A stretch of 64,000 nucleotides of DNA from a candidate division FCPU426 bacterium (lineage in GTDB: Bacteria > Oederibacteriota > Muellerivitia > Muellerivitales > Muellerivitaceae). Each line of letters starts with the position of its first letter. Position 1 is the first letter of the stretch. Of this stretch, positions 14,701 to 41,870 are shown piece after piece. Under the pieces are notes generated by a model that was not told the origin of the DNA, made no database searches, and was given only the letters and a program-made list of their open reading frames with translations. The position numbers were made by a program, and so were the translations under genes. The stretch is taken from the NCBI GenBank assembly GCA_963771075.1, contig CAVYSE010000026.1, positions 1 to 64,000 of the forward strand, written 5' to 3'.

Positions 14701-15279
14701 GTAGGGGGAATCACCGGTCGCCGTAAAACCGGCTACCTTCGCCCAAGTCGCCGCCGAGTTGGTGCTGACCCACAACCCGCCCATACGCGAGCCAAAATAG
14801 AGTTTGCTGGTGAGATTGGGGTCCACGGCCAGCCGTTCCCCCGCGTTTCGCCCATCGGCATTGCCTCCCATGATGACTCCGATGGCGTTCTGGGTCCAAC
14901 TGTTGCCCTGGTTCGTGGAAGAGAGGACATACCCGTTCCCATTGCCGTAATTTTGGCCGATGGCCGCGTAGACCACTTGCGCATTTTTAGGATCGGGCGC
15001 GATGCTTTCGATGCCGTATAAGTTCCAGTCGCTTTCGAAGTCGGTGAGGGGAACCCAAACATTGTTGATATTGTCCCAACGGTAGGCCCCGCCCATGTCG
15101 GTGCGCATATAAATGAGACCCTGCTGCACATGGCTATAAGCTATTCCAGAGACGTATCCTCCGGCAGGCACGACGACGTTTTTCCAGGTATAGGTTTGGG
15201 CCAGGGAGATGCCCGTGTTGAGGCAAAACACTAATAAAGACGCTGCCGTAAATCGTTTTTTTAAAAAAAGGGCTTTCAT
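11020..15279 (-). CDS. Secreted GH74 xyloglucanase/endoglucanase + ~600 aa Thr/Ser/Pro stalk + C-terminal sorting-like domain
   Basis: [30 protein letters not shown] (catalytic Asp), [28 protein letters not shown] (second Asp), BNR/Asp-box repeats (STNxGxTW), [15 protein letters not shown]. Confidence 0.95.
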
Positions 15280-21644: not shown

Positions 21645-21798
21645 CATAGCGGGCCTGGGTGAAAAAGGCCCCTCGGGATCGGAAACAAAACCAACCACTT
21701 TCACTGCCACTCGCCTCCATTTTGGGAAAGGTTCCGAAAACAAGGTTTACCTAAAGCAGGTTATTCCATTTCCCTTGGGGCGAACGTTGCGATAGTCT

Positions 21799-21815
21799 GT
21801 GAAATAAAAAATAGG
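21799..21815 (+). promoter_or_regulatory. 17 bp motif GTGAAATAAAAAATAGG, copy 1
   Basis: Identical to 25431-25447; both lie in intergenic DNA upstream of plus-strand lipoprotein genes. Confidence 0.5.
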
Positions 21816-21935
21816 GTCATCTGTATCGTTCCATAAGCAGGATTTTTCGCTTCCCGCCGGTCCCCGGTCGATGAAGTTATAGTGAATCGTCCGGCCTGGA
21901 TTGGGGACCACGCCGGCTAGGAGCCGCATAGGAGG

Positions 21936-22763
21936 ATGGGAATGAAACCCTTTTCGCTGGGGCTGGGCCTGCTGGTTTGCTTGGGGGTTGGGATTTTGGG
22001 CTGTCCATCGAAGAACAATCCCGCCGTTCCCCCCGCCCCCTCCAGTAACGGATCGACCGCGACCTGGACCCCCTCCGCGACCAACACGCTTGTGAATACC
22101 GCCACTGCCACCGCGACCCCGACGGCCACCTCGGCCCTCAGCAGCACCCCGACCCCCACCCCGACCAACACGGTCCCACCCGGGTCCACCGCCACCCTGA
22201 CCCCTTCCGTGACCACCAGCCCCACGAACACGGCTTCCCCTACGATCACCTCGACGCCCGGCCCGGTCGCCACCTATTTCGAGGGCGCGAGTTACAGCCT
22301 GACCGGATGGACGGATAGTCCCACGGGAGCCGTCACGATCACGCCCCTATTCCTGGTCGCGGGAGGATACGGCGCCAGCACGGATGGCGCGGGGGTTAGC
22401 GTGACCTGGAGCGCGCAGAGCCAGAACGTGGCCATTTGGTACAACTATGGCACCTCTTCCAATTGGTCGAGCCTGGGGATCACCGGCTTCCAGGCTTGGA
22501 TCATCGCCAATCCATTGCCATCGGACAATACGGGCATGCAACTGACTTGTGAGAGCGGCAGCGGTTACAATTGGCAGCAAAGCGGTTGGAACAACGTGGG
22601 CGCCGCCAACACCTGGCAGCAAGTCAGCTACACCCCGCCTTTCACGGCGACAGGGTCGGATAACACGAATGTCGAGGGCTTCGCTTTCCAATTCGACACG
22701 GGCGGGGCCTCCACCGCTTACTCGACGGACTTGCTTGAAATCAGCAACGTGGAACTCTATTAA
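21936..22763 (+). CDS. Lipoprotein with Thr-rich linker and CBM-like jelly-roll domain
   Basis: Lipobox ILGC, TPT linker, Trp-rich domain NWSSLGITGFQAWI..NTWQQVSY..ISNVELY, similar to the domains of 34418-35674. Confidence 0.75.
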   Translation: MGMKPFSLGLGLLVCLGVGILGCPSKNNPAVPPAPSSNGSTATWTPSATNTLVNTATATATPTATSALSSTPTPTPTNTVPPGSTATLTPSVTTSPTNTASPTITSTPGPVATYFEGASYSLTGWTDSPTGAVTITPLFLVAGGYGASTDGAGVSVTWSAQSQNVAIWYNYGTSSNWSSLGITGFQAWIIANPLPSDNTGMQLTCESGSGYNWQQSGWNNVGAANTWQQVSYTPPFTATGSDNTNVEGFAFQFDTGGASTAYSTDLLEISNVELY

Positions 22764-22923
22764 GGAAACCTCTATTAATTCACCACCAAGGCACAAAGAC
22801 ACCAAGAAAACTTTATTTTATTGATGTCGGCAAAACCAAAAAGGCAATTTCTAGAGGTGCCTTAATCTGGGTCCGGCCCCCCATTAGGGAATACCAGCCG
22901 GGCCCCGAAGGAACGTTGGATTA

Positions 22924-25401
22924 ATGGCCTCCACCCAAAAAATCCTGACTGGAAAGGCGTCCACCCTGCTTCGAATTCATTTCTTCCTTCTTTCGTGCTT
23001 GTTCCTATCCCCCTCCGCCCAGGCGGAAATAACCCTTCCCGCCCTTTTTGGCGATCACATGGTCCTTCAGCAAGGGAGTCCTTCGGTCTGGGGAAAGGCG
23101 GAACCGGGTAAGGTCATCACGGTCTCCCTGGCCGGCCGGAAGGCGTCGGCGACGGCTGATCCGGCGGGGAAGTGGAAGGCGGTTTTTTCTTCCCTTCGCT
23201 CCGGCGGGCCTTGCGAAATGATCCTTTCCGGCGATGGGGCGGTCACTTTGACCGACGTCCTCGTCGGGGACGTTTGGCTCGGTTCCGGCCAATCCAACAT
23301 GGAGTTTTGCCTCAAGGCCACCGACGATGCCGCCGACCAAGTCCCTAAGGCGGACATGCCCGGGATGAGGCTTTTCACCCTGGCCCACCACGCCTCCGGC
23401 CTGCCGGTGGAGGATGTCCAAGGCTCGTGGAAAGTCTGCACCCCCGATACGGCGAAGGAATTTTCCGCGGTGGCTTACCATTTTGGAAGGCAGATTCAAC
23501 AAACCTTGAAGAAGCCCATCGGCTTGATCGTCAGCTGTTGGGGAGGCACCGCGGCCGAGACCTGGGTTCCCCGGGATGAGTTGGATAAGGTACCGGCCTT
23601 CGCGCCGATCCTCCAGGCCTGGGATAACGACAGCCAGATGGCCCAGGTCTGGGGCGCGGGAGCCCCTTATTCCCTGCGGCTCTCCGGCCTTCGACTCACT
23701 CCCAAGGCGGGGAAGGGCCAACCCCTGATCATCCCGCTTCCGGACGACGCTAAGGCCAAGGCCAATACCTGGAATTGTTCCGTTGCCCCCGGGTCCACGG
23801 GCACCTTTACGGCGGAGGGGAAGGGCCCCGAGGGCGGTCCCGCAGCCCTTTTATCGGGCCTCATGAAGGGAGGATGCTGGATCACCCTGACCTCGGCCCT
23901 CAAGCCGGAAAGCCCTACCGTCTCCCTAGGTGATTTTGACGCTGTGGAATTTTACGCCAAGGGTTCGGGCAAATACCGGATGAAGCTGGGCCAGCCTTCC
24001 ATTGCCGACTACGACTATTACTCCACGGATGTCTTTTCCGCCCCGGACACATGGACGCTGATGCGGTATCCCCTGCTTTCGTTGAAACAGGGGGGATGGG
24101 GCGAAACCAAACCCTTCACGCCGGACGCGGTTCAAAACGTGAATTTCACGGTCGAGATACCCTATTGGCCCGACCTGGCCGGAGTGGCCTATAACGGCAT
24201 GATCGCGCCCCTCACCCCCTTCGATATCAAGGGCGTCCTTTGGTACCAGGGCGAATCCAACGCGGGCCGGGCCTCCGATTACCATTTGCTCCTTTCGACC
24301 CTCATCCGGAGTTGGCGAGGGGCTTGGGGAAAGGACCTGCCCTTTCTCATCGTGCAGCTCCCGAATTACATGGCGGTCAAACCCCAGCCTTCCGAGAGCG
24401 GTTGGGCCGAGCTTCGGGAAGCCCAATACAAGATTTTGGATGTCCCCGGGACGGCCGTCGTGACGACCATCGACCTGGGCGCGGCGGACAACATCCATCC
24501 GAAGAAAAAGACCGAGGTGGGACGAAGGTTGTCCCTGGAGGCCCTGGGGATGGTTTACCACCAAGGGAAGGCCGCCTCCGGGCCCCGGGTGGACAGCCTG
24601 GATGCGTCCAGTGGCGCGATGCGGTTGAAGTTCAAAAATGCCGGCGGCGGCCTGGCCACGGCCGATGGCGGGCCCGTGACGGGTTTCGCGTTATGTGACG
24701 CGGATGGGAACTGGGCCTGGGCCCAAGCGAAGATCACGGGCCGGAACCGCTTGAAAGTATGGAATGACGCCATGAAAGACCCCGTCGAGATCCGGTATGC
24801 CTGGGCGGACAACCCCCTCTGCAACCTGGTCAACCAGGAAGGGCTCCCGGCTTTCCCCTTCCGTTACCGCACCGTGCCGGAGCCGCCCAGCGACGGGAAA
24901 GCTTATTTCGAAAATTGGAAAATATTGGACGGTTCGAACGCGGGGACCTACGCCGACACGAAGGGTTCCAAAATTTTATACGCGGTGGAAAAGGGACCGG
25001 CCCAGGGCTTGCGGGCGATTCGCCTGACCTACACCCTGGCCGGGTCCGGCTTTTGCGGCCTTTGGCACAACGCGGCCTATGACCTTTCCAAGGGTGCGGC
25101 GATCCTTTTCCAGGCCAAGGGAACCTTGCCGGGTCAAGTGCAAGTTGCCCTGAAGGATAAATGGAACGTCCAGTATGTGGCCATGGGAACCGTGCAAAAG
25201 GATTGGACCCAGGTGCGCGTTCCCCTATCCGCTTTCGTGAAAGACCCCTATTACACCCCCGATGGCGCCCAGCCCGGCCACCCGATGGATCTTTCGCGGG
25301 TCCAGGGAATCAATTTCGGCCCGCAAGCACCGGGAGAGGGAGACCTGTGGGTGGGGCCGCTCTCCCTGGAGGAAAGTCCGATCGGTCCCGCTTCCCGATG
25401 A
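22924..25401 (+). CDS. Sialate O-acetylesterase (SASA/DUF303)-family carbohydrate esterase with inserted and C-terminal CIA30/CBM11-like modules
   Basis: LPALFGDHMVLQQ, VGDVWLGSGQSNM, FSAVAYHFG, YNGMIAPL..IKGVLWYQGESN, PFLIVQLPN, DNIHPKKK, IRYAWADNP..NLVNQEGLPAFPFR. Confidence 0.9.
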   Translation: MASTQKILTGKASTLLRIHFFLLSCLFLSPSAQAEITLPALFGDHMVLQQGSPSVWGKAEPGKVITVSLAGRKASATADPAGKWKAVFSSLRSGGPCEMILSGDGAVTLTDVLVGDVWLGSGQSNMEFCLKATDDAADQVPKADMPGMRLFTLAHHASGLPVEDVQGSWKVCTPDTAKEFSAVAYHFGRQIQQTLKKPIGLIVSCWGGTAAETWVPRDELDKVPAFAPILQAWDNDSQMAQVWGAGAPYSLRLSGLRLTPKAGKGQPLIIPLPDDAKAKANTWNCSVAPGSTGTFTAEGKGPEGGPAALLSGLMKGGCWITLTSALKPESPTVSLGDFDAVEFYAKGSGKYRMKLGQPSIADYDYYSTDVFSAPDTWTLMRYPLLSLKQGGWGETKPFTPDAVQNVNFTVEIPYWPDLAGVAYNGMIAPLTPFDIKGVLWYQGESNAGRASDYHLLLSTLIRSWRGAWGKDLPFLIVQLPNYMAVKPQPSESGWAELREAQYKILDVPGTAVVTTIDLGAADNIHPKKKTEVGRRLSLEALGMVYHQGKAASGPRVDSLDASSGAMRLKFKNAGGGLATADGGPVTGFALCDADGNWAWAQAKITGRNRLKVWNDAMKDPVEIRYAWADNPLCNLVNQEGLPAFPFRYRTVPEPPSDGKAYFENWKILDGSNAGTYADTKGSKILYAVEKGPAQGLRAIRLTYTLAGSGFCGLWHNAAYDLSKGAAILFQAKGTLPGQVQVALKDKWNVQYVAMGTVQKDWTQVRVPLSAFVKDPYYTPDGAQPGHPMDLSRVQGINFGPQAPGEGDLWVGPLSLEESPIGPASR

Positions 25402-25430
25402 TCTCGCGGGAAAAGAAGATTTCCGAGCGA

Positions 25431-25447
25431 GTGAAATAAAAAATAGG
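25431..25447 (+). promoter_or_regulatory. 17 bp motif GTGAAATAAAAAATAGG, copy 2
   Basis: Identical to 21799-21815; starts an AT-rich promoter-like stretch upstream of the barrel operon. Confidence 0.5.
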
Positions 25448-25656
25448 ACAAATGATTAATATTTAAAAGCCTTCTTTTAATTTCAATATCCAAAGAACCC
25501 CAAAGGGGATAGATTACTTTCCGCCGGCCCCTCGTGGATGGGGAGGAGAGGGTTTTTCCAATGGCGCCGGGTGGAGGATCACCGGGGCGCCCGAACCGGG
25601 CCCTGTTTTTTTCGCCCGCATGAAATCATTCGAGGACGACCATTCATCCATTCCCA

Positions 25657-26436
25657 ATGAAGAGACAGTCCCTCTTGAAAGCCGCCTTGATCCTGTTCGG
25701 GTTGACGGCCTATTTGCATTTAGCCGGCTGTGGGGTGGTCTTCGTCAACCGGGGATCGCAAGACGAACCCTTGAGGGACGGGTTGGAAAAACCCTCGGAC
25801 CATCGGGTCGCGGTCACGGTTCCGTCCGCACAAAAGGTGATCTGCGATTTCGAGGACGGCACTACCCTCATGAATCCCCGGCTTTGGGGCGCCCCGAACG
25901 GAAGCTGGTCAGCCTATTCCTACGCGGGCAACACCGTGAACTATCCCTTCATCGTCCCGGGAGGCGCCAATGGCACCCGGGAGGCCGCCCATGTGTCCGG
26001 GACCCTGGTCAACAAGGGGGACGCCACCTATCCCGCCTTCATCCTGGCGGGCAAATTCAAGCCCAACGGCACCTATGACGCGAGCGCCTTTACCGGCATC
26101 CGTTTCTATTACCAATGCCCCTCCAGTGACCAGGCCCTGGCCAGGAGATTCGCAATTCCCATCGCTCCCACGGTCCCCTCTTCCAGCGGAGGGACCTGCG
26201 CCAGCGACTGTTACAACCATTTTGGGCAGGACCTGACCGTGACGGATGGCTGGGTCTTGAAAACGGTCCCGTTCAAGGATTTGCAAAGGGTGGCGGGATG
26301 GGGTTCTCCCGTGGGTTCGCCCGAATTTCCGGACCATTTGACGGAGATCATCGATATCGAGTGGAACCATAACTCGGCGAATACCGCCGGCAAGTACAAC
26401 ATCGATTATTGGGTGGATGAGGTTGAGTTCTATTAA
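25657..26436 (+). CDS. Lipoprotein with CIA30/CBM11-like carbohydrate-binding domain
   Basis: Lipobox LAGC; ICDFEDG, YDASAFTGIRFY, CASDCYNHFG, VPFKDLQRVAGWG, YWVDEVEFY. Paralogue of 33629-34363. Confidence 0.8.
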   Translation: MKRQSLLKAALILFGLTAYLHLAGCGVVFVNRGSQDEPLRDGLEKPSDHRVAVTVPSAQKVICDFEDGTTLMNPRLWGAPNGSWSAYSYAGNTVNYPFIVPGGANGTREAAHVSGTLVNKGDATYPAFILAGKFKPNGTYDASAFTGIRFYYQCPSSDQALARRFAIPIAPTVPSSSGGTCASDCYNHFGQDLTVTDGWVLKTVPFKDLQRVAGWGSPVGSPEFPDHLTEIIDIEWNHNSANTAGKYNIDYWVDEVEFY

Positions 26437-26528
26437 GAACCTCAAGCCGAAAGCTTTTACCACGTTCGCCTTCGGCATCCCGGCGGGCAGGTAAAGGGTT
26501 GGATTTGGAAATTTTTTTAAGGAAAGAA

Positions 26529-29051
26529 ATGAATCCGCGGATCCTGAAATTTAAAACCTTCCTCGGCCTGCTGGCGGTTGGATCGTTCCTCATCGCGGGC
26601 GCCCCGGGCCTGTCGGCCCACCCGCTGGATAACGTCACGCCCGACGACGCGCTTTACCAACGGGTCCAAAAACTGGGGGACGCCGGGCTCCTGGACCCGG
26701 GTGACCAGGCCCTTTTGGACCAGGGGAGGATCGTGACCCGGTTGGAGCTGGCTTTGTTCGTGGAAAAATCCGAATCCCGCCTCGGGATCGGGCCCGAGAC
26801 GGGGTCCAACCCATCCCCCCTCGTGGTCGCCCAGGCGCCTCCCGCGCCCGAACCGGTCCTATCGACCCCGGCCTCCGCGAACACGCCTTCCGCCTCCCCC
26901 CTTTCTCCCTCCGTCGGCCCCGCCCTTCAAAAGGAGATCCGGGAACTGCTGAAGATATTGGAGGAGGAATCATCCTACCTGCGGACGAGGTTGAGCCTGG
27001 ATGACGTGCGCGTCCACCAACAGGAAAAGGAACTCGAGAAACTCCAGGCCGCGCAGGCCGAGGTCGACGCCACCTTCCGGAAAGCCGATGAATCGACCGG
27101 AAGCCCGCATTTCACCTCCATTTCCAACCTGCGGGTCGAGAACCTGGACCTGTCGGGGATCACGGCGGTCAGCGCCTCGCGGATCCAGGAGGAAGTGAAC
27201 CTGGGGGCCTGGAGCGACCTGGGCGGGAAGGGTTCCATCAGCGTGGGCCTGGGCGGTTACCTGTTCGGGTCCAACGCCTCCTCCAGCCCGGTCTCCATCT
27301 ACCAATTCTCGCCGGTCGTCAATTACAACCTGGACGGGAAGCTGGGCCACTGGAGCGCCACCGTGGCGGTGGAGGACTATACCTACGACACGGACCTGGG
27401 GGTCTTCACGCGCGGCCAGGCGCCCGGGATCCTCCGGTTCGAGGATCCCTTCGACATCAAGAAATATTCCGCCGATAAGGACCTGAAAAACTGGGACGAT
27501 TACATGACCAACCTGGGCTATGTCCCGAGCGCGGTGGCCTGGCAGTCCCAGAACAGCTCCACCAAGGTCTTTGACGGCCTTTATATGATCGGAAGCCAGC
27601 TGCCCCTGGTCAGCCCCGACGCGCGGGCCACGATCCTGCTCGGCCGGATGGGAAGCAGCGTGGAACCCAACGAATGGGAGGAAGCCCTCAAGTACAGCCA
27701 ACCCTGGCTGGGCGGCGCGCTCATGACTTCCTTCTCGACCCTTTGGGTGAACGACAACGACGGGATCGTCCCCGCCGAAACCGCGGCCATCGACATGAAG
27801 GATTACGCGGCGAATATCGGGATCGATCTGCACCCCGTCTTCATCGGGCTGGACGCGGCCTTCTCCGATTTCTATACCGGCATGGACTCCCAAAACCCGC
27901 TGGATCCCCAGGTCTTGTCCGCGCCCGCCGGCCAGGCCTCCCTTTCCCTCTACCCCCTGACCTTTTATTACACCGCCATTAGCGACGGATACGCCAATAT
28001 GCAAAGCAAGGTGGTCCTGGCCGGCATCAACTCGCCCCGGTTCGGATTGCCCAATATCGTCGGCACGACCCAAGCCTCCGGCGTCGGGGCCAGCAATGCC
28101 GGCGTCTTCGACAATCCGGGATATGTGGGCATGGTGGACGACTTGGTCAGCAACCGCTACGGCTGGCGCGCCAACCTGGGGTGGAAAGGCCGGCAGGAAA
28201 GCTGGTCCAAGGATCTGCCCGCGTTCCTGGACGATATTTTGGTCAATTTCGACGTGGCGCAAAAGACCGAATATTCCGTTTTGCCGGACGAGGTGGGGCA
28301 TAACGTGGTTCAGGTCAACGACATCCTCACCGTTTACTACCCGGAGGACACCGGCCTTTGGGGCAACAGCCTTTGGGGGGGATACAACGGGTTGCAGTCC
28401 GTCGGGACGGAGTACGTGAACCATCTCACGGCGCAACGCAACGACGGAATCTCCGATGAAGTCTATATGATGGTGGGGAATGGCACCACCCAAAGGGTGC
28501 CCTTCATGCTTCCGGTCTATTCCTCCCCGGGAGTTCTGGCGACCTCCGGAGGCGAAAACCTTTACACCCTCTTGGACCACCTCAAGACCTATCACTACCT
28601 GACCCTCACCACGAAAATCCAATTCAACAAATGGTTCAATCTGTCCAGCCCCTTCTATGGCAGTTTCTTTTTCACGGACAATGGTGTTTCCGGGAACACG
28701 GCCAATCCCGTCCTTTCCGCCATGCCCGACCCCAACCGGCCGGGACAAACCCTGGGTTCCATCCCCAGCCTGTTCGACCAGACCGTCTACGATGGCTCCT
28801 TGATGGTCCAGGTGGTCCGCAACGTGCAAGTCATGGGCGATTATGGCTTGGAACTTTGGAAATCGGATTACACCTATCCCCTGGTCGATCAGCGAACCGA
28901 TTCGGTCGGCCTGGGGCTGGCCTATGACCTGCCCTGGGGCGGCGGCAAACTGGAAGCGCGTTACAAGCACCTGGTTTTCCAGGACACCTACGTGCCGGCC
29001 AACAATTACCAGGCCGACCAGGTCTACACCTATTTCCTGTTTGGCTTTTAA
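26529..29051 (+). CDS. Outer-membrane beta-barrel protein 1 with N-terminal SLH-like domain and coiled coil
   Basis: Signal peptide; SLH-like DNVTPDDALYQRVQKLGDAGLL..IVTRLELALFV; coiled coil LQKEIRELLKILEEE..LEKLQAAQAEV; amphipathic beta-strands; C-terminal YTYFLFGF. Confidence 0.75.
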   Translation: MNPRILKFKTFLGLLAVGSFLIAGAPGLSAHPLDNVTPDDALYQRVQKLGDAGLLDPGDQALLDQGRIVTRLELALFVEKSESRLGIGPETGSNPSPLVVAQAPPAPEPVLSTPASANTPSASPLSPSVGPALQKEIRELLKILEEESSYLRTRLSLDDVRVHQQEKELEKLQAAQAEVDATFRKADESTGSPHFTSISNLRVENLDLSGITAVSASRIQEEVNLGAWSDLGGKGSISVGLGGYLFGSNASSSPVSIYQFSPVVNYNLDGKLGHWSATVAVEDYTYDTDLGVFTRGQAPGILRFEDPFDIKKYSADKDLKNWDDYMTNLGYVPSAVAWQSQNSSTKVFDGLYMIGSQLPLVSPDARATILLGRMGSSVEPNEWEEALKYSQPWLGGALMTSFSTLWVNDNDGIVPAETAAIDMKDYAANIGIDLHPVFIGLDAAFSDFYTGMDSQNPLDPQVLSAPAGQASLSLYPLTFYYTAISDGYANMQSKVVLAGINSPRFGLPNIVGTTQASGVGASNAGVFDNPGYVGMVDDLVSNRYGWRANLGWKGRQESWSKDLPAFLDDILVNFDVAQKTEYSVLPDEVGHNVVQVNDILTVYYPEDTGLWGNSLWGGYNGLQSVGTEYVNHLTAQRNDGISDEVYMMVGNGTTQRVPFMLPVYSSPGVLATSGGENLYTLLDHLKTYHYLTLTTKIQFNKWFNLSSPFYGSFFFTDNGVSGNTANPVLSAMPDPNRPGQTLGSIPSLFDQTVYDGSLMVQVVRNVQVMGDYGLELWKSDYTYPLVDQRTDSVGLGLAYDLPWGGGKLEARYKHLVFQDTYVPANNYQADQVYTYFLFGF

Positions 29052-29090
29052 GGAATGGTTTCGAAAGGCGGAAGAGTGTTGAGGAAAAAA

Positions 29091-31254
29091 ATGAAACTCC
29101 TATTCTTCTCCTGGCTGGCGGGCCTTTTCTCGGCCGTTCCTGGCCTGGCTTTCGCGGACCACGGAGCGACCGCTTCCACGCAACGGGACCCTTGGATTGA
29201 CCTGGCCTTCGACCACCTGGTCCTGGCCGGGTTGGCCTCGCCGTCCGCCAAGCCTGTCGATCAAATGACCAATTTGGAGATGGCCCAAGCCACCGCCGGG
29301 GCCGCCCAAAAGTTAATGGACCCGAACACACCCGCCCCGCCGGAGGAAGGGATCCGGGCGCTCAACCGTTTGGTGGATGAATTCGACGACGAGCTGGCGG
29401 TGATGGGCGTTTACGCGACCATGGTGGAGGACCGGATCCGGGACGAGGAGAGGCGAAACGAGGAATTCGGCACCCTGCAAAAGGGGCTCCTGACGCAAAC
29501 CGGGACCCAATTGTCGGGTTACGCCAGGGGTTATTTCGACCTGTACCGGGGTTTCGGAGTCAACGCGATCTACGCGCCCATGGATAACAACGACATCATG
29601 TTCGAGGACTTCAAGCTCAAGAGCGTTCCCGTGCCCTTCGTGCTTTTCAACGCGGATATCCGCCTGACCCGCACCATCGGTTTGTATTACGCCGACCCGG
29701 TCAATCCCACCTACAACCTCCGGTGGCTTTCCTTTTCCAACGTCAATGACGTGGCGAACCTGACGGCCGGCGACTTTTACCGGCATTACACCCCCTTGAC
29801 CCTTTGGAACAACGATGTTCCTCTTTACACGATGATCGAGCCCGAGTCCTACGCCCGGGTCCGAAAGGACGTGGAGGAACTGGCCTACCTGGACCACGGG
29901 CCCGATTGGCATATGCGGGGTTTCGAGGCCACTTCGGACCAGGCCGTGACCCTGGTGCAACCCCTCGATTCCTTCCACCTCCAGGCCATGGCGGGAGAAC
30001 TGCAGTCGGCGGCCCAATACAGCTTCGCTCAGGATTACGCCGGGGGCGAGGCCGCATTGGATTTCCTGGACGGCCAATTGGAGGTTAAGGGGACCGGCCT
30101 GCTTCTATGGGATGACAGCCAGGCGTCGGACGTACCCTATATTCCCGGGCTTTTTACCACCTACTCGAAGCAATACCAGGTCGGCAGCCTATCCGCCCGC
30201 GGGACCTGTCCCATCCAGGAGGATACCCAGCCTGACGGCATCGGTGGAGTGGGCCGGAAGCCTTTACCAGGATGACAGCACCCAAAGCCAAAGCGTCCTG
30301 CAGGATTCGGCGATCCTGGGGAATGGGACCCTTCATCTAGGAAGCGCCCAAGTGACAGTGAAGTACATCCATACCGGGGCCTATTTCTATTCTCCCGGAG
30401 CCCAAACCAACCGCTACACCCCCGCGATGGGCGGAGTGGGATACCTCAGCAACAACCAAAACCTGGACGACGCCCTCCCGGGATACCTGGACAATTACGT
30501 TTTCCAGGATGTCAACCGGCCCTCCTTCGCGCCCTATGACCGGATGGCGGAAAACATCCTACCCTATGGCGATGCCACCCCCAACCGGGAAGGTTTCGTC
30601 CTGGGCGGATCAGCGGAACTGGGGAAGGAAGGCTGGCTCAAACCCCAGCTCTCCGTGGACCTGGGCATGCGGGAGCTCCAACCCAACCTGGCCCTCACGG
30701 TGACGGGACCGGTCGCGGTGGACAGCGGGACCAATACGGCCAATGCCCGGACCTTCACCGGGGTGGAAGGGGCCCTAAAGGCGGATTGCAACAAGGTCCT
30801 GGACGGACTTCCCTCCACCTGTTCCATCGCCCTGGATTACAAACACCAGACGACGGACCTGGGCTTGGGGGCGGCGCCCTTCTCGGTGGATACCTTCATC
30901 CTTTCCGCCGACGCGGGGCCCTTTCCGGACATCCCGCTTTTGGAAGGCATGGTCCTCTCGGGGGCTTACGAGTTGAACCAGGGGAGCGGAAACGAATACA
31001 GCCTCAATAACCTGGGAACTCCCCCGACCCTGGCCGAATACCCTTTTTACCTGGACCCCTCCCTCATCGGCCAATACACCTACCAGACCCTGGATATTAC
31101 CCGGACCTCCTGGTCGTTCGGATTCAAATTGCCCTTGAGCCAGTCCGCTAACCTGCACGGGGATTGGTTCTATCATCAATACACCTGGGCCAGCGAACCC
31201 GGATTCGACCGGCGGGAAGAAATATGGAGGGCGACCTATGAACTCTCCTTCTAA
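29091..31254 (+). CDS. Outer-membrane beta-barrel protein 2 with SLH-like domain and coiled coil; one frameshift (extra C at 30226-30228)
   Basis: DPWIDLAFDHLVLAGL..MTNLEMAQ; LNRLVDEFDDELAVMGV resembles the OmpM/cyanobacterial porin coiled coil. ORFs 29055-30275 and 30112-31254 join into one protein collinear with barrel 3. Ends TYELSF. Confidence 0.75.
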
Positions 31255-33645
31255 TAATAGGCAAAGAACCGCCCGCAAGGCTCGGAGGGGCCTTTCCAGG
31301 TCGTTTTTCTTCCTCGTGATTCCCGTGGTCCTGTGGGCGTCGGGTTCCAATGGCCTTTTTTCTGTGGTGCCCGCGCAAGACAAGACCTACGTACAATTGG
31401 AACAGTTGGTGGAAGCCGGTTTGTTGAACGCGGGGGATGTCGCCTATCCCCTATCCCGGTATGACGTGGCCAAACGCATCCTGGCGGCCCAGGACCAATA
31501 TGACCAAAGGGTCATGGCCCAAGCCGGTGGTGAGATACCTCCCCCGCCCGACGCGCTGGTTACTTCGACCGCCGATTCGGCGGTCCCTCCTCCTTCGGCC
31601 GAAAGGCCAGGTCTGGCCGCAACGACAGGTCTCGCCGGAACGCCGGTACCAGTCCTAACTTCAATCCCAGATGGGACCCCTGTCCCGTTCGGGACTCCTG
31701 TTCCCCCCCATGGGATTCAAAAAGCCTTGAAACCCTTGACCAGTCTGAAGGAGGCTTACCAATACGAATTAAAAGAAGTGGTGAAGGCCAAGCTCCTGAA
31801 GGTCCAAAAAGAGGCCGATGAGCTGGATTCCAAGCAATACGACCTGCGCAAGAAGATCGTGGGAGTGGGGGAGTACCCGACCCTTGCCATCCATGGGTTG
31901 GGACGGGCTTTTGGATTGTCCCAGTTATACACGGGAGCCATGCCCGGGTACGTGACCCAACCCGGAACCCAGACCTTCTCGGGTTACCTGGATTTGAACC
32001 CGGAGGGAGTCGTTTCCAAGGAGGTGGGATGGAACACGATCTTGAGGTTGGAAACTCCCATGCAGCCCAACGCCGATTCGGTGATCACCTTCCGGAGCGC
32101 AGCGATCCACTTTGACCCTTCCTGGATGTCGGCCACCCTGGGTGATTTCGAGGAATCCTACACTCCCCTCGTGATGTGGAATCGAAACACCCTGGACCTT
32201 CGTTATGTTCCGGAGATGATGGCCCGCCAGGATGATACGGCCAAATACGAAAGTTTCCTCAACCACGAGCCGGATTGGCCATTGCGGGGTGTCAAGATCG
32301 GCACGGAACTCATGTGGCCGGATTCCCCTATTGTGGAAAGATTCCAAGTTTCCGCTTTCGCCGACATGGTCCACGATAGCCTCAACGATTACGGCGGTTT
32401 CATCGGTCCCGGCCAATATACGGACTGGATTTTCGGGGGAAAGGCTTACCTCCAGTCCCCCAAGCAATATTGGGAGGACGGTTCCTGGCAATGGGACTTG
32501 AGCGCCTGCGGACTGGTCATGGACGAGCCCCTCGACTCCAACCCCGGCCTTGCCTATGATCCCTACAACGCCTCGACCTGGGCACACCAGTACCTGATCG
32601 GGAGCGTCCAACCGGGTTTGAAGGTGACGCTGGGGGGGAACTCACCTTGGGGGCCACCGCGGAATTCGCTTTTTCCAGCTACCAGGACGACAAGCTCAAC
32701 TCCAACCGGATCTTCAACGACAACGCCTTTTTGGGCGGCGCCTATATCGGAATCGGCGATTCCCGGGTCACCTTCAACTACCTTTACGTGGACCCCTATT
32801 TCTATTCGCCGCTGGCCCAAACCCGGCAGGACGCGGTCACGAACCTGTCGGGACTTAGCTCGATGGCCAGTTCAGGACTTTTCTCGTCCCCGCTCCGGGG
32901 ACAATTTTTCCTTCCTTCCATCCCTCGGGCCGGGGGGATCTTTGGCTACTATGACCGGACCCAGGACAATACCTTCCCCTACGGGTTGGCGACCCCCAAC
33001 CGGGTGGGCGTGGGAATGGAAGTGGATATCCGGGCCTTGGAACAACGCGCCTTGCGGATCCTGGGGTCGGCTTACCTCATGCAGGAAGTGGAGGACAATC
33101 TGGTCACCAACGCGGCCTACACGGCTCTGGTCCCCGTGGACGCGCCCCTGGGGACCGGTTCGGTCCCCGCACGGCAATTCACCTATATCAATGCCGGACC
33201 CTCCCTCAACCTGGGGCCGCTGATCGGATGGGACCGGGACCTGGAGATCGGGACGAATTTACGGATGGAACAAACCACCAGCGGTTTGGGAAACCTGACC
33301 AGCACCTGGATCCTCGGAGGATTCCGCGTGGATGTCCTTCCGGTATGGGAGGTTTCGGCCTATTACGGCAACCAAACCGCGCAAGGCACGGAGGAGGGCG
33401 TGGATGGGACCCTTTGGGCCCGGTACGCTTACGTCTTCGACGGATCCGACCTGGGACAATACCAGCCCTTCACCGTGAACGGAACCAACCAAAGTTGGAT
33501 GTTCACGAACCTTTTCAAGGTGAACCGCAACTCCAGCATCGATTTGGACCTCGATTGGACCAGCGGAAACCTGCTGCCCGTCCGTCCCGCCCCTGGGACT
33601 CTCAACAGCCTGTTTTATGAGGTGACTTATGAAGTCCGGTTCTGA
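31238..33645 (+). CDS. Outer-membrane beta-barrel protein 3 with SLH-like domain and coiled coil; one frameshift (G7 run at 32632-32638, G8 restores frame)
   Basis: DKTYVQLEQLVEAGLL..PLSRYDVAKRI; coiled coil LTSLKEAYQYELKE. Shares GDFxxxYTPLxxWN, PDWxxRG, YFYSPxAQT and YDRxxxNxxPYGxATPNRxG with barrel 2. Ends TYEVRF. Confidence 0.75.
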
Positions 33646-34363
33646 GGGGAAAAGCGCAATCCGTTTGGGGCTCCTCGCCCTGTTGGGAGCCATCGGGTGG
33701 AGCTGCCAAACCCAGGCGCCCACGAATTACCTTTCCGTGCCGGCGGGAGGAGACGCGCCCTCGATGATCATCAACTTCGAGGGTTCCCCGGCCACCGTCG
33801 TGAATTCCAACCTGGCCGAGGCCGGGGTGGCCCATCACGTCGTGGTGAGTCCCGGGTTCGCGAGCCTCAATGGCGGAGGCAGTTCCATGCTCGTTTCCAT
33901 GCCCGGAGCCGCCGGGACAGGCCATGCGCTCAGCGTTTCGGGCATCGTGACCGGCACCCTGCTCCAGCTGACCATCAGCTTGGACACCAATTCGCCGACG
34001 GGATATTACGACGCCAGCCTGTTCAAGGGTGTCCGGTTTTACCTGAGGGTCATGGGGGATGACCAAACCACCCAGAAGTTTTTTTCAATTCCCATCGCCC
34101 AAACCATGCCGATCGGGAACAAGGGCACCTGCCCCGCCAACTGTTACGACCATTTTGGCTACACTTACTCCGGCACCCACGGGCAATGGCAGCAGGTTTC
34201 GCTGGATTTTTCGTCCCTGAAACGGCACGGTTACGGGGGCCCCGTGACACCAAGCACCCTGACCGGGACCAATCTCCAGCAATTCGTGCAGTTGCAATGG
34301 CAGGAAAACAGCGACGGCACCAACATGGCGGATTTTTCGGTGGATGAGGTCCAATTCTATTGA
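33629..34363 (+). CDS. Lipoprotein with CIA30/CBM11-like carbohydrate-binding domain
   Basis: Lipobox-like GWSC; IINFEG, YDASLFKGVRFY, CPANCYDHFG, WQQVSLDFSSL, FSVDEVQFY. Confidence 0.8.
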   Translation: MKSGSEGKSAIRLGLLALLGAIGWSCQTQAPTNYLSVPAGGDAPSMIINFEGSPATVVNSNLAEAGVAHHVVVSPGFASLNGGGSSMLVSMPGAAGTGHALSVSGIVTGTLLQLTISLDTNSPTGYYDASLFKGVRFYLRVMGDDQTTQKFFSIPIAQTMPIGNKGTCPANCYDHFGYTYSGTHGQWQQVSLDFSSLKRHGYGGPVTPSTLTGTNLQQFVQLQWQENSDGTNMADFSVDEVQFY

Positions 34364-34417
34364 CCGTAGGTTCGTTGGAAGCGGTTCACCGTAAAAGGTT
34401 TCGCGGGAGGGTTTGGC

Positions 34418-35674
34418 ATGAATAGAAAATGGTTGGGTTTTTCCGTGATGGCGCCGGTCCTCACGGCCTTCGCCCTTTGGCTTGCCCAGGGCTGCGCCCA
34501 AAAGCTACCGAGCTTGGCCAGCGTGGCCATCCCGCCCACTCCCACTCCCCAAACCAGCTGGTTTTTCGAGACGAACACCAATATCGGCGCCGGAAACGGG
34601 AATTGGAACGACACCGGGCTCAATGTCTACGCGGGCACCCCGGTCACGGGCGTTGTGAGCTGGAGCCAACCCGGGTATAACGGTTCGGTCGGTTGCTTGA
34701 GTGATAACCTTACCTTTTCCGGGTCCGCCCAATCGGATACCCTCCAGTACACCCCCCTCTCCCCCCTGAATTTCACCGCGCTGGGACTCAATGGGCTGAG
34801 CGCTGAAATATGGGTCGATTCATCCTTGGATAGCGCCCCGTCCGTCCAGATCTATTTTCAAAGCGGTTCGGGAACTTGGGAATGGGGGAACCAGGTTTCC
34901 GTGACTCCCAACGCATGGACCAGCATCGGGTTCATTCCCACTTGGTCCAATAACGGGGAAGATCCGACGAAAGTCCAGTCCTTCTGGATCACGGTCAAGT
35001 CGGGTTCGGGCGGCACCTTGGGGAGTGGGAACATCAAGCTGGACAATATCGTGCTCAACGCAGGCGCCATTATTCCGGTGGCCACCCCCACCGTGACCTC
35101 CCTTCCGGCATCCCCGACACCCACCTTTACGCCGGTGGCCGCCGACAGCTGGTATTTCGAGAGCAGCACGATGGGCGCCGCGGGGAACGGCATTGGCACC
35201 GCGGCGAACCAGTCGGACACCTGGTATGACAACGGGGCCGGCTCGGTTTCGGGCGTCATCAGCTGGGCTTCCCCCGGTTACAACGGTTCCGCGGGCTGCC
35301 TGGTCGATTTCCTGACCTTCACCGCCCAGGGGCAAACTGATGAGATCCAATATTCCCCCTCAAGCCCGATGAATTGGACAAGCCTGGGGATTGTGGGGAT
35401 GCGGGGAGAGGTGTGGGTTGACGGCAGTTTGGATACGAACGGCAGTCCCGTGGTTCAGCTTTTCGCTTCCAGCGGTTCGGGGACAGTCTGGGAATATGGG
35501 GGTTATGACAATTTGACCGGAAACGCATGGACGGAAGCCGCCTGGGTACCCCCCTTTTCCACTTCCGGAACCGATCCAACCCAGGTCCATGAAATCTGGT
35601 TCAAGATCGTAACGAATACGGGTTCCTCTTTCGGGAGCGGAAACATCAAGCTGGACAATATCGAGCTTTATTAG
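34418..35674 (+). CDS. Lipoprotein with two tandem CBM-like jelly-roll domains
   Basis: Lipobox AQGC; internal duplication SWxFE..ISWxxPGYNGSxGCL..EIWVD..WExG..NAWT..DPTxV..GSGNIKLDNI, separated by a PT linker. Confidence 0.8.
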   Translation: MNRKWLGFSVMAPVLTAFALWLAQGCAQKLPSLASVAIPPTPTPQTSWFFETNTNIGAGNGNWNDTGLNVYAGTPVTGVVSWSQPGYNGSVGCLSDNLTFSGSAQSDTLQYTPLSPLNFTALGLNGLSAEIWVDSSLDSAPSVQIYFQSGSGTWEWGNQVSVTPNAWTSIGFIPTWSNNGEDPTKVQSFWITVKSGSGGTLGSGNIKLDNIVLNAGAIIPVATPTVTSLPASPTPTFTPVAADSWYFESSTMGAAGNGIGTAANQSDTWYDNGAGSVSGVISWASPGYNGSAGCLVDFLTFTAQGQTDEIQYSPSSPMNWTSLGIVGMRGEVWVDGSLDTNGSPVVQLFASSGSGTVWEYGGYDNLTGNAWTEAAWVPPFSTSGTDPTQVHEIWFKIVTNTGSSFGSGNIKLDNIELY

Positions 35675-35714
35675 CGGTTTCAACGATGGATTCTTCTCCC
35701 CTTAAAAGGCGGTC

Positions 35715-37706
35715 ATGAAAGTTCATTCATATGCTGGGGGCGGCTGGTTCGTTACCGAAGGCAAGGCGATCGTCTGCTCGCAGGTGTTTCCCTTGGAAAT
35801 GGCAATAAAGGGAAAGATCTATCAAGGAAAGATGGAACGGGGCCTCCGGGGGACCTTTTCGGGCCGATTGGCGGATGGAAAGGGAGATTTCCTTTCTTGC
35901 GACGCTTCCTTCCGAAAAAGGACCCTTCATGGACTGGAAGTGCTGGAGGAAAAAAGGGTCTATCGGGCCCTGCGGGATATCCCGAAAGCTTTATTGACCG
36001 TCCGGTATTTCCTCCAACCCGTCCCGAAACAGGGAGACGGCTTCCTGGCCATTCCCGCCCTTTGGTACGGGGACAACGAGGGTTGGCAGAAGAAGATCCC
36101 CTATCCCAAGGGGATCGAAAAGGACTGGAGTTTCCGGGCGGATGGGTCTTCCTGCCCGGCGGTGATCTGGATCACGCCCCTCTCTTCCTATGCCCTGGCA
36201 ATCGATCCATCGGTCCGGTTCCCGGTGAAACACCAAGGGTTGGACGACATCCTGGGCATCGGGTTCGCCCGGATGGAGGATCGGCCCCAGGCCCTTTTCA
36301 CTTTCCCGGCCCAGGAAATTCCCAAAAGTTTCCCCTGGGGCCGAAAGCTCCGGGCGCCCCTCCAACCCCGTATTGACTGGAAGAAAGGGCAGGGCCTGAC
36401 CCTCACCCTTTACCATTCCGCCTCCAGGCCGAACCGGGCCTTCCACGTCCGGGTATGGCGGGCCCACATGGACCGGGTTTCCAAGCCCTTCCGGTACCGG
36501 ATTGATCGCTCGAAGCTTGAGAAAACAGCCGGTCTCTTCACCCACTGCCTGAAAGAAAGCCATTTTCTGGAAGGAAAGGGGTTTTCCCACCGGCACGATA
36601 TCCCCGAGATTTTCACAGGATGGTGCGGAGGGTTCGCGGCGGCCTACGCGGCAATCAAATGGGGCGACCTGTCCGGCGATCCGAGGCTCCGATCGATGGG
36701 TGAAACCATGTGCGATTACATCTGCCAAGAGGGGGTTTCGCCCTCGGGGCTCTTTTATTCCGAGAACGCCAAGGGAATTTGGCTGGAAAAGGTTTTTTGG
36801 GGAGCGGCCCGGGGCATTCACATGCGCAATCCCTCGGAGGGTTCCTGCTACCTGGCCCTGATCCTGGAATACGAGCGCCAAAAGGGAAGGACCCGGCCGC
36901 TCTGGGACCGGGCCCTGCGCTCGAACCTGGACCGGGTGGTCGCCCTCCAGCGGCGGGACGGCGCCATTCCCCACGAGGTGGATGGAAAGACCGGCAAACC
37001 CCTTTCCTGGGTGGGGGCCACGAGCGGCGCCTGGGCGGGCGCGCTGGCGGTTTATTCACGGATCGACGGGGACAAATTACGGTCCCGGGGCTACCTCCGC
37101 TCGGCCGAAAAGGCCGCGGCTTACTACCTGAAGCATTACGTGGAGAGGGAACGGTATATCGGCGGGCCTTACGACACCTACATGGCCCCCAATATGGAAG
37201 ATCCCTACAACCTGCTTTTGGCCTACTCGGAGTTGTTCCAGGCCACGGGTAAAAGGAAATGGCTGGGGGCGGCCCAAAGGGTGGCCGACCATCTCCTGTC
37301 CTGGCGATATCTCTACGACGCGCGGTTCCCGGACGGGACCGTCTGCCGGAAAAATAAGGTGAAGACCTTCCACATGTCCCCCGCGTCGGTCTCGAACAAG
37401 CATATCCAGAACTGGGACACCCTGGCCGATCCCTACCTGATGAGGCTCAGCCGATGGCTGGGGGATCCCTTTTACGCCGACTGCGCCCGCCAACACCTGG
37501 CGGCTTCCACCCAATTGGTGCAGGTTGGCCAGCTTCCCAAGGGTATTCCCTACGGCGGCCAATCGGAGCAGTGGTACGCGACGAATTTCAACTGGTTCGG
37601 GAATTGCGGCAAGTACTCCAAGGGTAACCTCTGGCAGATCACGGTGGCCCTGCCGAAGGCGGGATTCCTTATTTCCATGGCGGAATTGAGGGCCGGGGGA
37701 AAATAA
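35715..37706 (+). CDS. Uncharacterised cytoplasmic protein, probably an (alpha/alpha)6 six-hairpin glycosidase-like fold
   Basis: No signal peptide. Helical repeats such as LVALQRRDGAIP, YLRSAEKAAAY, LLAYSELFQATGKRKWLGAAQRVADHLLSW, and GGQSEQW. Located inside a carbohydrate locus. Confidence 0.55.
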   Translation: MKVHSYAGGGWFVTEGKAIVCSQVFPLEMAIKGKIYQGKMERGLRGTFSGRLADGKGDFLSCDASFRKRTLHGLEVLEEKRVYRALRDIPKALLTVRYFLQPVPKQGDGFLAIPALWYGDNEGWQKKIPYPKGIEKDWSFRADGSSCPAVIWITPLSSYALAIDPSVRFPVKHQGLDDILGIGFARMEDRPQALFTFPAQEIPKSFPWGRKLRAPLQPRIDWKKGQGLTLTLYHSASRPNRAFHVRVWRAHMDRVSKPFRYRIDRSKLEKTAGLFTHCLKESHFLEGKGFSHRHDIPEIFTGWCGGFAAAYAAIKWGDLSGDPRLRSMGETMCDYICQEGVSPSGLFYSENAKGIWLEKVFWGAARGIHMRNPSEGSCYLALILEYERQKGRTRPLWDRALRSNLDRVVALQRRDGAIPHEVDGKTGKPLSWVGATSGAWAGALAVYSRIDGDKLRSRGYLRSAEKAAAYYLKHYVERERYIGGPYDTYMAPNMEDPYNLLLAYSELFQATGKRKWLGAAQRVADHLLSWRYLYDARFPDGTVCRKNKVKTFHMSPASVSNKHIQNWDTLADPYLMRLSRWLGDPFYADCARQHLAASTQLVQVGQLPKGIPYGGQSEQWYATNFNWFGNCGKYSKGNLWQITVALPKAGFLISMAELRAGGK

Positions 37707-37829
37707 GGCGTCCGGGGGGTTGGGGCGCGGGCCCCGTCGGCGGTTCGGATTGACCGGGCTGGATCTCGCCAGGCAAGCCTCTCCGGTCGGGTGCCTCTTT
37801 TTCGGAAAGAGAGTGGATAATAACAAGCT

Positions 37830-41817: not shown

Positions 41818-41870
41818 GGGTGCATTCAAGTTTCAAGGGTAATTTTTAATAAAGTCGAAAGGGGTTGCTC

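Follow-up and report, generated by a model that had tools for sequence, protein, structure and literature searches.

In the diderm Terrabacteria, proteins of the OmpM type are regarded as the ancestral tether of the outer membrane, and those of Veillonella parvula as general porins encoded by single genes. SlpA of Deinococcus radiodurans is reportedly a homotrimer with a 30-strand barrel. Here we describe a cassette of five genes, three of them encoding OmpM-like proteins (genes 1 to 3) and two encoding the flanking lipoproteins lipoA and lipoB, in a stretch of 64,000 nucleotides (nt) from a candidate division FCPU426 bacterium (contig CAVYSE010000026.1 of assembly GCA_963771075.1, positions 1 to 64,000; hereafter the window). 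In our best reading, such cassettes encode OmpM-like tether-channels, of which the accessory copies are specialised for glycan uptake.

According to the excerpted text of the OmpM1 study (PMC10628300), the S-layer homology (SLH) heads of V. parvula OmpM1 tether the outer membrane to the wall while its barrels conduct nutrients, the protein is a homotrimer described as a general porin, and OmpM is said to be absent from Gracilicutes. The cassette proteins resemble OmpM (8bym, 8bys, 8bz2) in their N-terminal SLH head, coiled-coil stalk and C-terminal barrel with a terminal aromatic residue. They differ from it in that both models predict barrels of about 22 strands, as against 16 in OmpM1, in that the Pfam SLH model misses their heads, in that one cassette encodes three divergent chains plus two lipoproteins, and in that OmpA-domain proteins and TonB-dependent receptors are encoded in the host genome as well. 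SlpA/SDBC of D. radiodurans (7zgx, 8agd), as presented in the excerpted text of PMC9388160, likewise combines SLH, a coiled coil and a large barrel, but SlpA is a single gene and the cassette proteins show no sequence-level match to it.

Importers of the SusC/SusD kind (BT1762-1763, 5t3r) share with the cassette a barrel of about 22 strands, adjoining lipoprotein genes and a locus of the polysaccharide-utilisation type. In contrast to SusC, however, the cassette proteins have neither a plug domain nor a TonB box, their N-terminus being an SLH head and stalk, and in contrast to SusD the cassette lipoproteins are only about 250 residues long and give no SusD match. Finally, the excerpted text of PMC12016534 describes chu_1276-chu_1280 of Cytophaga hutchinsonii as an ‘atypical’ polysaccharide-utilisation locus outside the SusCD scheme, comprising two outer-membrane proteins, CHU_1278, the SGBP-B-like CHU_1279 (SGBP, surface glycan-binding protein) with domains like carbohydrate-binding modules (CBMs), and an endoglucanase; we liken it below, by composition alone, to a Bacteroidota cluster. 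What is new here with respect to OmpM is that the head-stalk-barrel plan takes the form of an obligate triplet, with much larger barrels (about 22 predicted strands) and two dedicated lipoproteins, duplicated into polysaccharide loci; new as well is an unnamed barrel family common to the lineage of the window, Bacteroidota and Spirochaetia. In the literature searched, a limited collection queried for OmpM, SLH porin heterotrimers and the outer membrane of Firestonebacteria, no description of the cassette was found.

A five-gene cassette fixed in one lineage

The cassette occupies 25657-34363 of the window in the fixed order lipoA, gene 1, gene 2, gene 3, lipoB, with the following features (ORF, open reading frame; P0073 and P0151 are intact proteins on record, discussed below).

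25657..26436, plus strand: lipoA, an ORF of 259 residues with the lipobox LAGC, which opens the cassette.
26529..29051, plus strand: gene 1, OmpM-like, 840 residues with a terminal Phe; an intact ORF at 26499-29051 with its likely start at 26529.
Parts of gene 1: leader, residues 1-29; SLH-type head, residues 31-85 approximately (nt 26619-26783), followed by a Pro-rich linker; stalk helix, residues 131-189 (nt 26919-27095); predicted barrel, residues 194-840 (nt 27108-29048).
29091..31254, plus strand: gene 2, OmpM-like, 720 residues if read as P0073, with one surplus base here; ORF pieces 29055-30275 (frame 0) and 30112-31254 (frame 1).
Parts of gene 2: SLH head, nt 29160-29318; stalk, nt 29343-29495; predicted barrel, from nt 29505.
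30226..30232, plus strand: frameshift site of gene 2, with one base more than in other assemblies, reported at 30231.
30559..30588, plus strand: signature LPYGDATPNR of gene 2, in the long loop 429-498 between predicted strands 13 and 14.
31238..33645, plus strand: gene 3, OmpM-like paralogue of gene 2, 802 residues if read as P0151, with one G short here; ORF pieces 31238-33223 (frame 2; homology stops near 32638) and 32647-33645 (frame 1).
Parts of gene 3: SLH-like head, about nt 31358-31522; stalk, about nt 31718-31867.
32632..32638, plus strand: frameshift site of gene 3, a run of seven G (G7) that is G8 in other assemblies.
32974..33003, plus strand: signature FPYGLATPNR of gene 3, aligned to that of gene 2.
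33629..34363, plus strand: lipoB, an ORF of 244 residues encoding a lipoprotein homologous to lipoA, which closes the cassette.

In the window, the annotated ORFs of gene 2 and gene 3, and likewise those of gene 3 and lipoB, overlap by 17 nt. A scan of 21500-38000 for promoters and terminators returned counts at chance level.

The genome to which the window belongs (4.39 Mb in 28 contigs, 96.7% complete) carries the five-gene unit three times, on contigs C26 (the window), C24 and C28. We then compared 24 close loci from other metagenome-assembled genomes (MAGs; L007-L030), counting gene order wherever the DNA reaches far enough. Gene 1 precedes gene 2 in 23/23 of these related loci and gene 3 follows gene 2 in 22/22, with a lipoA-like gene ahead of gene 1 in 19/22 and a lipoB-like gene after gene 3 in 17/20. 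Furthermore, a survey of 99 species genomes of the phylum identified relatives of genes 2 and 3 in all 30 genomes of the same family and in the one genome of its sister family, and elsewhere only weak partial matches (7/67). Gene 1 is present in 29 of the 30 family members, the single miss being an 84%-complete genome, in the sister family (1/1) and in none of the 67 others. Cassettes number from one to about four per genome. The three genes stay together as one unit, which is universal in a single uncultured lineage of soil and bog.

Architecture of the three OmpM-like proteins

No Pfam or NCBIfam family matches genes 1-3. Among 5.8 billion clustered proteins we identified 52 homologues of gene 1, 96 of gene 2 and 70 of gene 3, none with a functional name (those that are named are each a ‘hypothetical protein’), and the 52 homologues of gene 1 have no Pfam domain over the gene 1 region; a gene 1 profile retrieved only 60 representatives, often fragmentary, from 1.84 billion. 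When profiles were searched against the sequences of the PDB, however, V. parvula OmpM1 was the top match for all three families. These matches involve the head of gene 1 (8bys, E 1.9e-5), the head of gene 3 (8bz2, E 9.2e-4) and the stalk of gene 2 (8bys, E 2.7e-4), gene 2 reaching only E 0.038 against 8bz2. In line with this, the predicted structures of genes 1 and 2 superimpose on the SLH crystal structure 8bz2 with a Z-score of 12.9 (root-mean-square deviation, rmsd, 2.1 Å; 81 of 83 residues; 30% identity) and 9.7 (rmsd 2.3 Å; 78 of 83 residues; 32% identity), respectively.

AlphaFold2 models cover genes 1 and 2, gene 3 being placed by its homology to gene 2. In the gene 1 model (predicted local distance difference test, pLDDT, 75.3; predicted template-modelling score, pTM, 0.68), a leader at residues 4-23 is followed by head helices at 41-84, a disordered Pro-rich linker at 88-126, the stalk helix and some 22-24 strands running from residue 194 to 839. 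The gene 2 model (pLDDT 89.0, pTM 0.77) has a leader at 1-21 that falls under pLDDT 50, head helices at 34-76, a short linker, a stalk helix at 85-135 and about 22 strands between 139 and 719. All three proteins have a hydrophobic N-terminal leader on inspection of the sequence, and the terminal Phe is kept in 49/49, 85/85 and 58/60 members of the gene 1, 2 and 3 families.

The modelled barrels match outer-membrane barrels at Z 11-14, and the longest alignments (350-397 residues at an rmsd of 4-5 Å) are to 22-strand barrels of TonB-dependent and SusC proteins and to 24-strand ushers, FimD and PapC appearing at Z 11.4-12.7. The top match of the gene 2 barrel is the SusC-like chain 5t3r_D of BT1762-1763 (Z 14.4, rmsd 4.3 Å, 386 residues aligned, chain residues 211-1016), a rank that lies within 1 Z of ordinary porins. 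SlpA is among the matches of the gene 1 barrel, as a loose fit (Z 12.2, rmsd 13.4 Å), and takes Foldseek ranks 40 and 38. The Pfam models Plug, TonB_dep_Rec and SusD gave no match, the N-terminal part being made up of leader, SLH head and stalk, with no plug domain. By sequence comparison and modelling together, genes 1-3 encode head/stalk/barrel proteins of the OmpM type, and for genes 1 and 2 the models predict some 22 strands in the barrel.

Genes 2 and 3 are homologous over their full length (hhalign probability 100, E 1.8e-73), as their pieces in the window already indicate (24% identity at E 1e-10 for the N-terminal and 30% at E 5e-26 for the C-terminal pieces). By contrast, gene 1 and gene 2 have only the head-linker-stalk module in common (hhalign probability 97.2, E 3.7e-11, 161 columns), and BLASTP of gene 1 against the gene 2 pieces found nothing significant. 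The signature loop is highly conserved: P491, Y492, G493, P497 and R499 are invariant among 85 sequences of the gene 2 family, and P581, Y582, G583, P587, N588 and R589 among 60 of the gene 3 family. In gene 2 this loop spans 70 residues, is confidently modelled and, if the N-terminus is periplasmic, is predicted to face the outside. In addition, each family has its own form of the wall-binding motif, namely TR[LM]E in gene 1 (34/49), TN[LF][EQ] in gene 2, with the Asn in 85/85, and TR[FY][DE] in gene 3 (54/60).

An earlier model reading of the DNA letters, the first-pass annotation, had described three consecutive paralogues of 720-840 residues, each with a signal peptide, SLH-like segment, coiled coil, barrel and terminal Phe, the second and third barrels sharing the loop motif YDRxxxNxxPYGxATPNR. 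The plan and its elements hold: OmpM1 profile matches, superpositions on 8bz2, and modelled stalks and strands agree with it, as do the inspected leaders and the counts of terminal Phe, and the PYG.ATPNR core of the loop motif is invariant or nearly so. AlphaFold monomers, which it had proposed for counting strands and looking for a plug, give about 22 strands in genes 1 and 2 and no plug. The genes are indeed three neighbours on the plus strand, but only gene 1 is a single ORF in the window, and the term paralogues fits genes 2 and 3 in full, whereas the gene 1 barrel is not detectably paralogous to theirs by either BLASTP or hhalign.

Flanking lipoproteins and wider relatives of the barrel

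Both flanking genes have lipoboxes; that of lipoA is kept in 17 aligned orthologues, and the lipoB orthologues have one too. The two lipoproteins are homologous to each other (hhalign probability 100, E 1.4e-58). For lipoA there is no Pfam, NCBIfam or PDB sequence match, and its look-alikes in a language-model comparison include CBM30/SGBP_B_XBD clusters at 0.91, a lead only; lipoB has weak CIA30 and SGBP_B_XBD matches below the Pfam cut-off and is likewise placed in no Pfam or NCBIfam family. Both may be surface glycan binders.

The gene 2/3 barrel has relatives in other phyla. A Spirochaetia MAG encodes a homologue of 711 residues with head (including a canonical TRAE motif), stalk and barrel (hhalign probability 98.4, E 6.8e-15, 574 columns), followed by a CBM11-like protein of 216 residues, an ATP-binding cassette (ABC) transporter binding protein and a Sortilin/BNR protein; the ORF upstream of this homologue scores a probability of 0.8 against the gene 2 family. 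Many MAGs of Flavobacteriales, Crocinitomicaceae and Saprospiraceae (L034-L067, e.g. L035:6685-13821; marine), and of Cytophagales, carry a conserved five-gene Bacteroidota cluster made up of the outer-membrane proteins OMP-A (about 631 residues) and OMP-B (about 585 residues), a 349-residue protein, a CBM30-like protein of 391 residues (E 5.7e-6) and a 425-residue protein weakly like glycoside hydrolase (GH) family 2. None of these cluster proteins reaches a curated Pfam or NCBIfam cut-off. OMP-B is homologous to the gene 2 barrel (hhalign probability 99.35, E 5.4e-21, 490 columns), and the signature motif is found in both OMP-B and the Spirochaetia homologue. In contrast to the cassette proteins, the OMP proteins of Bacteroidota have no SLH head or stalk, and the gene 1 family shows no detectable kinship with OMP-A (hhalign probability 3.7). 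In composition, this Bacteroidota cluster resembles chu_1276-chu_1280 as given in the excerpted text of PMC12016534.

Carbohydrate and housekeeping settings of the cassette

The window copy lies in a xylan-type locus, with two GH30 enzymes, GH5, GH67, a SASA esterase with CBM11, a GDSL esterase, LacI and AraC regulators and an ABC binding protein as its neighbours. The C24 copy sits beside GH2, GH44, a binding protein, a LacI-type gene and ABC permeases, and carbohydrate genes (GH44, GH31, GH42-like, CBM11, binding proteins, galactokinase) adjoin 7/24 of the related loci, the context being uninformative in 4/24. We link the cassette to glycans because of these carbohydrate-active enzyme (CAZyme) neighbours of the window and C24 copies, the seven related loci, and the CBM-like neighbours of the barrel relatives in Spirochaetia and Bacteroidota; the place of the window copy among carbohydrate-context copies in the tree below and the SusC-like top match of the gene 2 barrel count on the same side.

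On this basis we consider it a serious prospect, falling just short of an even chance, that the three OmpM-like proteins work jointly as a channel for glycan fragments that is tethered to the wall. On the model of V. parvula OmpM1, the heads would bind the cell wall, the stalks would bundle and the barrels would conduct solutes. Three different chains would join via their stalks into one heterotrimer, whose three non-equivalent heads (TR.E, TN.E and TR.D/E) would imitate the way in which S-layer proteins carry three unequal SLH repeats. The lipoproteins lipoA and lipoB could bind glycans at the cell surface and feed or cap the barrels, in the way that SusD and SGBPs serve SusC. The copy in housekeeping context would serve as a general tether and porin, and each duplicated copy would be adapted to those oligosaccharides that the enzymes of its own locus release; for the window copy, these would be xylan-type products (xylo-oligosaccharides) from GH30, GH5, GH67 and the esterases, which the ABC binding protein at 41865-43160 would then receive.

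Several results weigh against this proposal. At the level of the proteins, the Pfam SLH model (PF00395) does not match the heads, the head-stalk linkers measure about 10, 43 and 65 residues, a spread for which a symmetric trimer has no need, and the Foldseek template-modelling scores of the barrels (0.2-0.37) amount to generic outer-membrane-barrel likeness. For the lipoproteins, the lipoA and lipoB profiles returned 0 matches among PDB sequences, lipoB reached an hhalign probability of 0.8 against the CBM11-like end of the neighbouring esterase, and neither lipoprotein has a significant CBM match. At the level of the genome, 13/24 related loci lie in housekeeping synteny, with lepA, the signal peptidase gene lepB, a hemN-like gene, hrcA and grpE downstream, so that the family is not glycan-specific, and the host’s own C28 copy is in a housekeeping neighbourhood too, which speaks against a purely glycan-specific role. 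The genome also encodes nine TonB-dependent receptors and five OmpA-domain proteins, and therefore neither import nor tethering hangs on the cassette alone.

The first-pass annotation had placed the barrels in a carbohydrate locus, and the window and C24 copies do sit among CAZymes. Its further proposal that the three proteins may be dedicated to oligosaccharide uptake, and its suggestion of CAZyme enrichment around the homologues, are matched by the window copy, the C24 copy and the seven carbohydrate-associated loci, but not by the thirteen housekeeping loci or the nine TonB-dependent receptors. Of the glycan-binding lipoproteins that it saw bracketing the barrels, the lipoprotein part stands, with a lipobox on both, whereas the CBM matches remain sub-threshold.

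To relate the copies to one another, we used a quick maximum-likelihood tree of 25 gene 2 sequences rooted on three gene 3 sequences (L018 and L027, being partial, were omitted). One clade, with a support of 100 in the Shimodaira–Hasegawa-like approximate likelihood-ratio test (SH-aLRT), unites twelve of the 13 housekeeping copies with one unclassified copy, and the thirteenth, L030, sits on a long branch deep in the tree. The window copy has L007 as its sister (100) and falls within a loose group of seven carbohydrate-context copies (94). Because the clades follow housekeeping versus carbohydrate context, there is a core cassette and, besides it, there are older duplicated cassettes that travel with glycan loci. 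The ancestral role of the cassette looks like a core envelope function, since 13/24 loci share the housekeeping synteny and form essentially the one clade described above.

Two separate observations concern these genomes. Directly upstream of the housekeeping cassettes (L013-L030, e.g. L014:1723-6348), 11 loci have an ORF of 1265-1541 residues for a TRAM/tRNA(U5)-methyltransferase, whose domains lie in the first 540 or so residues, the next 750-1000 or so having no Pfam match at E ≤ 1e-7. A gene of the PF04230 pyruvyl-transferase family in the host genome was considered as CsaB and set aside, as the family is too broad to be diagnostic.

Alternative explanations and wider implications

The cassettes could be general envelope parts only, that is tethers plus non-specific porins, with the copies in carbohydrate loci as extra or condition-specific isoforms that have no glycan specificity. 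Such a role would suit a cassette that is universal in its family (30/30), of which one copy is enough in several near-complete genomes (e.g. G068, 99% complete, with two gene 2/3 matches) and which so often keeps the lepA-lepB-hemN-hrcA-grpE synteny; it would also suit the description of OmpM1 as a general porin in the excerpted text of PMC10628300. We nevertheless judge it unlikely, since the accessory copies repeatedly, and in several genomes, adjoin GH44, GH31, GH2, GH30, GH67, binding proteins and LacI and have long been separate from the core clade in the tree, and since barrel homologues in two other phyla adjoin CBM-like proteins as well.

A similarly low likelihood attaches to the possibility that the function is as we propose and that each protein forms its own homotrimer, giving three distinct channels per cassette in the manner of OmpM1 and SlpA. 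SlpA is said to be a homotrimer, the linkers of the three proteins differ strongly in length, and the gene 1 barrel is unrelated in sequence to the gene 2/3 barrels. The solved relative OmpM1 is also a homotrimer, according to the excerpted text of PMC10628300. Against separate homotrimers, the three genes are strictly co-inherited 1:1:1 and in fixed order through every duplication, their annotated ends overlap, and the head motifs are fixed and family-specific, gene 2 having Asn without exception at the position where one would expect the wall-binding Arg. Because of the strict 1:1:1 inheritance, the overlapping gene ends and the family-specific wall-binding motifs, comparison of the sequences suggests a mixed trimer of the three chains. 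The differing linker lengths are compatible with either a heterotrimer or three homotrimers.

A role in export or surface display, in which the plug-less barrels move lipoproteins or polysaccharide outward, is very unlikely: the barrels are as large as those of ushers and TonB-dependent transporters, FimD and PapC are among the structural matches, and two lipoproteins are always co-encoded, but neither the cassette nor its conserved flanks showed any partner gene of a secretion system, and the contexts, with their glycoside hydrolases, binding proteins and LacI, are catabolic rather than biosynthetic.

Returning to the wall-tethered glycan channel, its boldest formulation would be an importer not described so far: a peptidoglycan-tethered heterotrimer of plug-less, SusC-sized barrels that works with two CBM-like surface lipoproteins as a TonB-independent counterpart of SusCD, with a barrel family spanning at least three phyla and with OmpM-type proteins as obligate triplets in an OmpA-carrying lineage. 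In this full form we regard the idea as tentative and, on balance, rather doubtful. If the accessory copies do import glycans, SusCD and specific porins would be joined by a third type of glycan gate in the outer membrane. Such a finding would also help to explain the unnamed barrel family that accompanies CBM-like proteins in Spirochaetia and marine Bacteroidota, and perhaps the cellulose cluster of C. hutchinsonii, which has so far lacked an explanation. The cassette, in addition, lends itself naturally to testing the idea of heteromeric SLH heads.

Frameshifts in genes 2 and 3

The paralogous genes 2 and 3 are broken at positions that are homologous, just ahead of a common ...YQDD stretch. 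We then aligned contigs from seven public soil and bog metagenome runs to the region. The base at 30231 is absent from the contigs of all three runs that bridge the site (X1, X2 and X5, from two studies), and an extra G at 32631 is present in both runs that bridge the second site (X1 and X4, both from one study); the X3 contig stops within the G-run and is hence uninformative on the gene 3 shift. Each of these differences brings its gene back in frame. The X1 contigs have 0 other differences from the window over 668 and 1114 nt, and X1 may be the source sample. In line with the contigs, P0073 is an intact protein of 720 residues that is 100% identical to both gene 2 pieces, and P0151 is an intact protein of 802 residues that is 100% identical over a 467-residue N-terminal gene 3 query, the part that the comparison covered. 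Furthermore, in the cassettes on C24 and C28 of this genome, gene 2 and gene 3 each form one unbroken ORF.

Because all bridging contigs are without the shifts and intact forms of 720 and 802 residues are on record, the shifts are probably consensus errors of this assembly or rare variants. A possible cause is that reads from paralogous cassettes were mis-placed on the conserved stretch. Phase variation at the G-run was set aside, as all bridging contigs have G8, the X3 contig ends in the run, and runs of at least seven G or C are common (725 in this genome). That the locus is decaying, its shifts being real and genes 2 and 3 a pseudogene or phase-variable pair, is extremely improbable: the window does carry both shifts at homologous positions, one of them in the G7 run, a shifted form of gene 3 with 661 residues (P0150) is on record from a 3230-nt contig, and the gene 1 paralogue on C24 is likewise in pieces, but the bridging contigs and the proteins P0073 and P0151 are intact, long G/C runs are frequent in the genome, the shift other than that in the G7 run lies outside any long homopolymer, and the downstream pieces of both genes are still similar over their full length to intact paralogues.

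Other cassettes show irregularities of their own. The gene 1 paralogue of the C24 cassette (G000:C24:58049-60926) is matched by the profile in three pieces, the last of which (60516-60926) is in another frame; this is likely a third frameshift of this assembly within the cassettes. Two other MAGs are affected as well: gene 3 is split at L024:3621-5841, on a contig labelled with 3.5x coverage, and at G048:C52:15486-22703 the cassette genes have several pieces and stops; these broken genes are either low-coverage assembly errors or decaying copies. The bog contig of X2 has an insertion of 18 bases behind 31674, in the Pro-rich linker of gene 3, which is an in-frame length variant.

Other open reading frames of the region

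Directly downstream of lipoB, the window has two ORFs with no Pfam or NCBIfam match, at 34418-35674 (418 residues) and 35715-37706 (663 residues), and in L007 an ORF of 413 residues with no Pfam match comes after the orthologous cassette. Farther away, an ORF of 1419 residues on the minus strand (11020-15279) has no Pfam or NCBIfam match, and a very long ORF of 1882 residues lies on the plus strand at 56492-62140.

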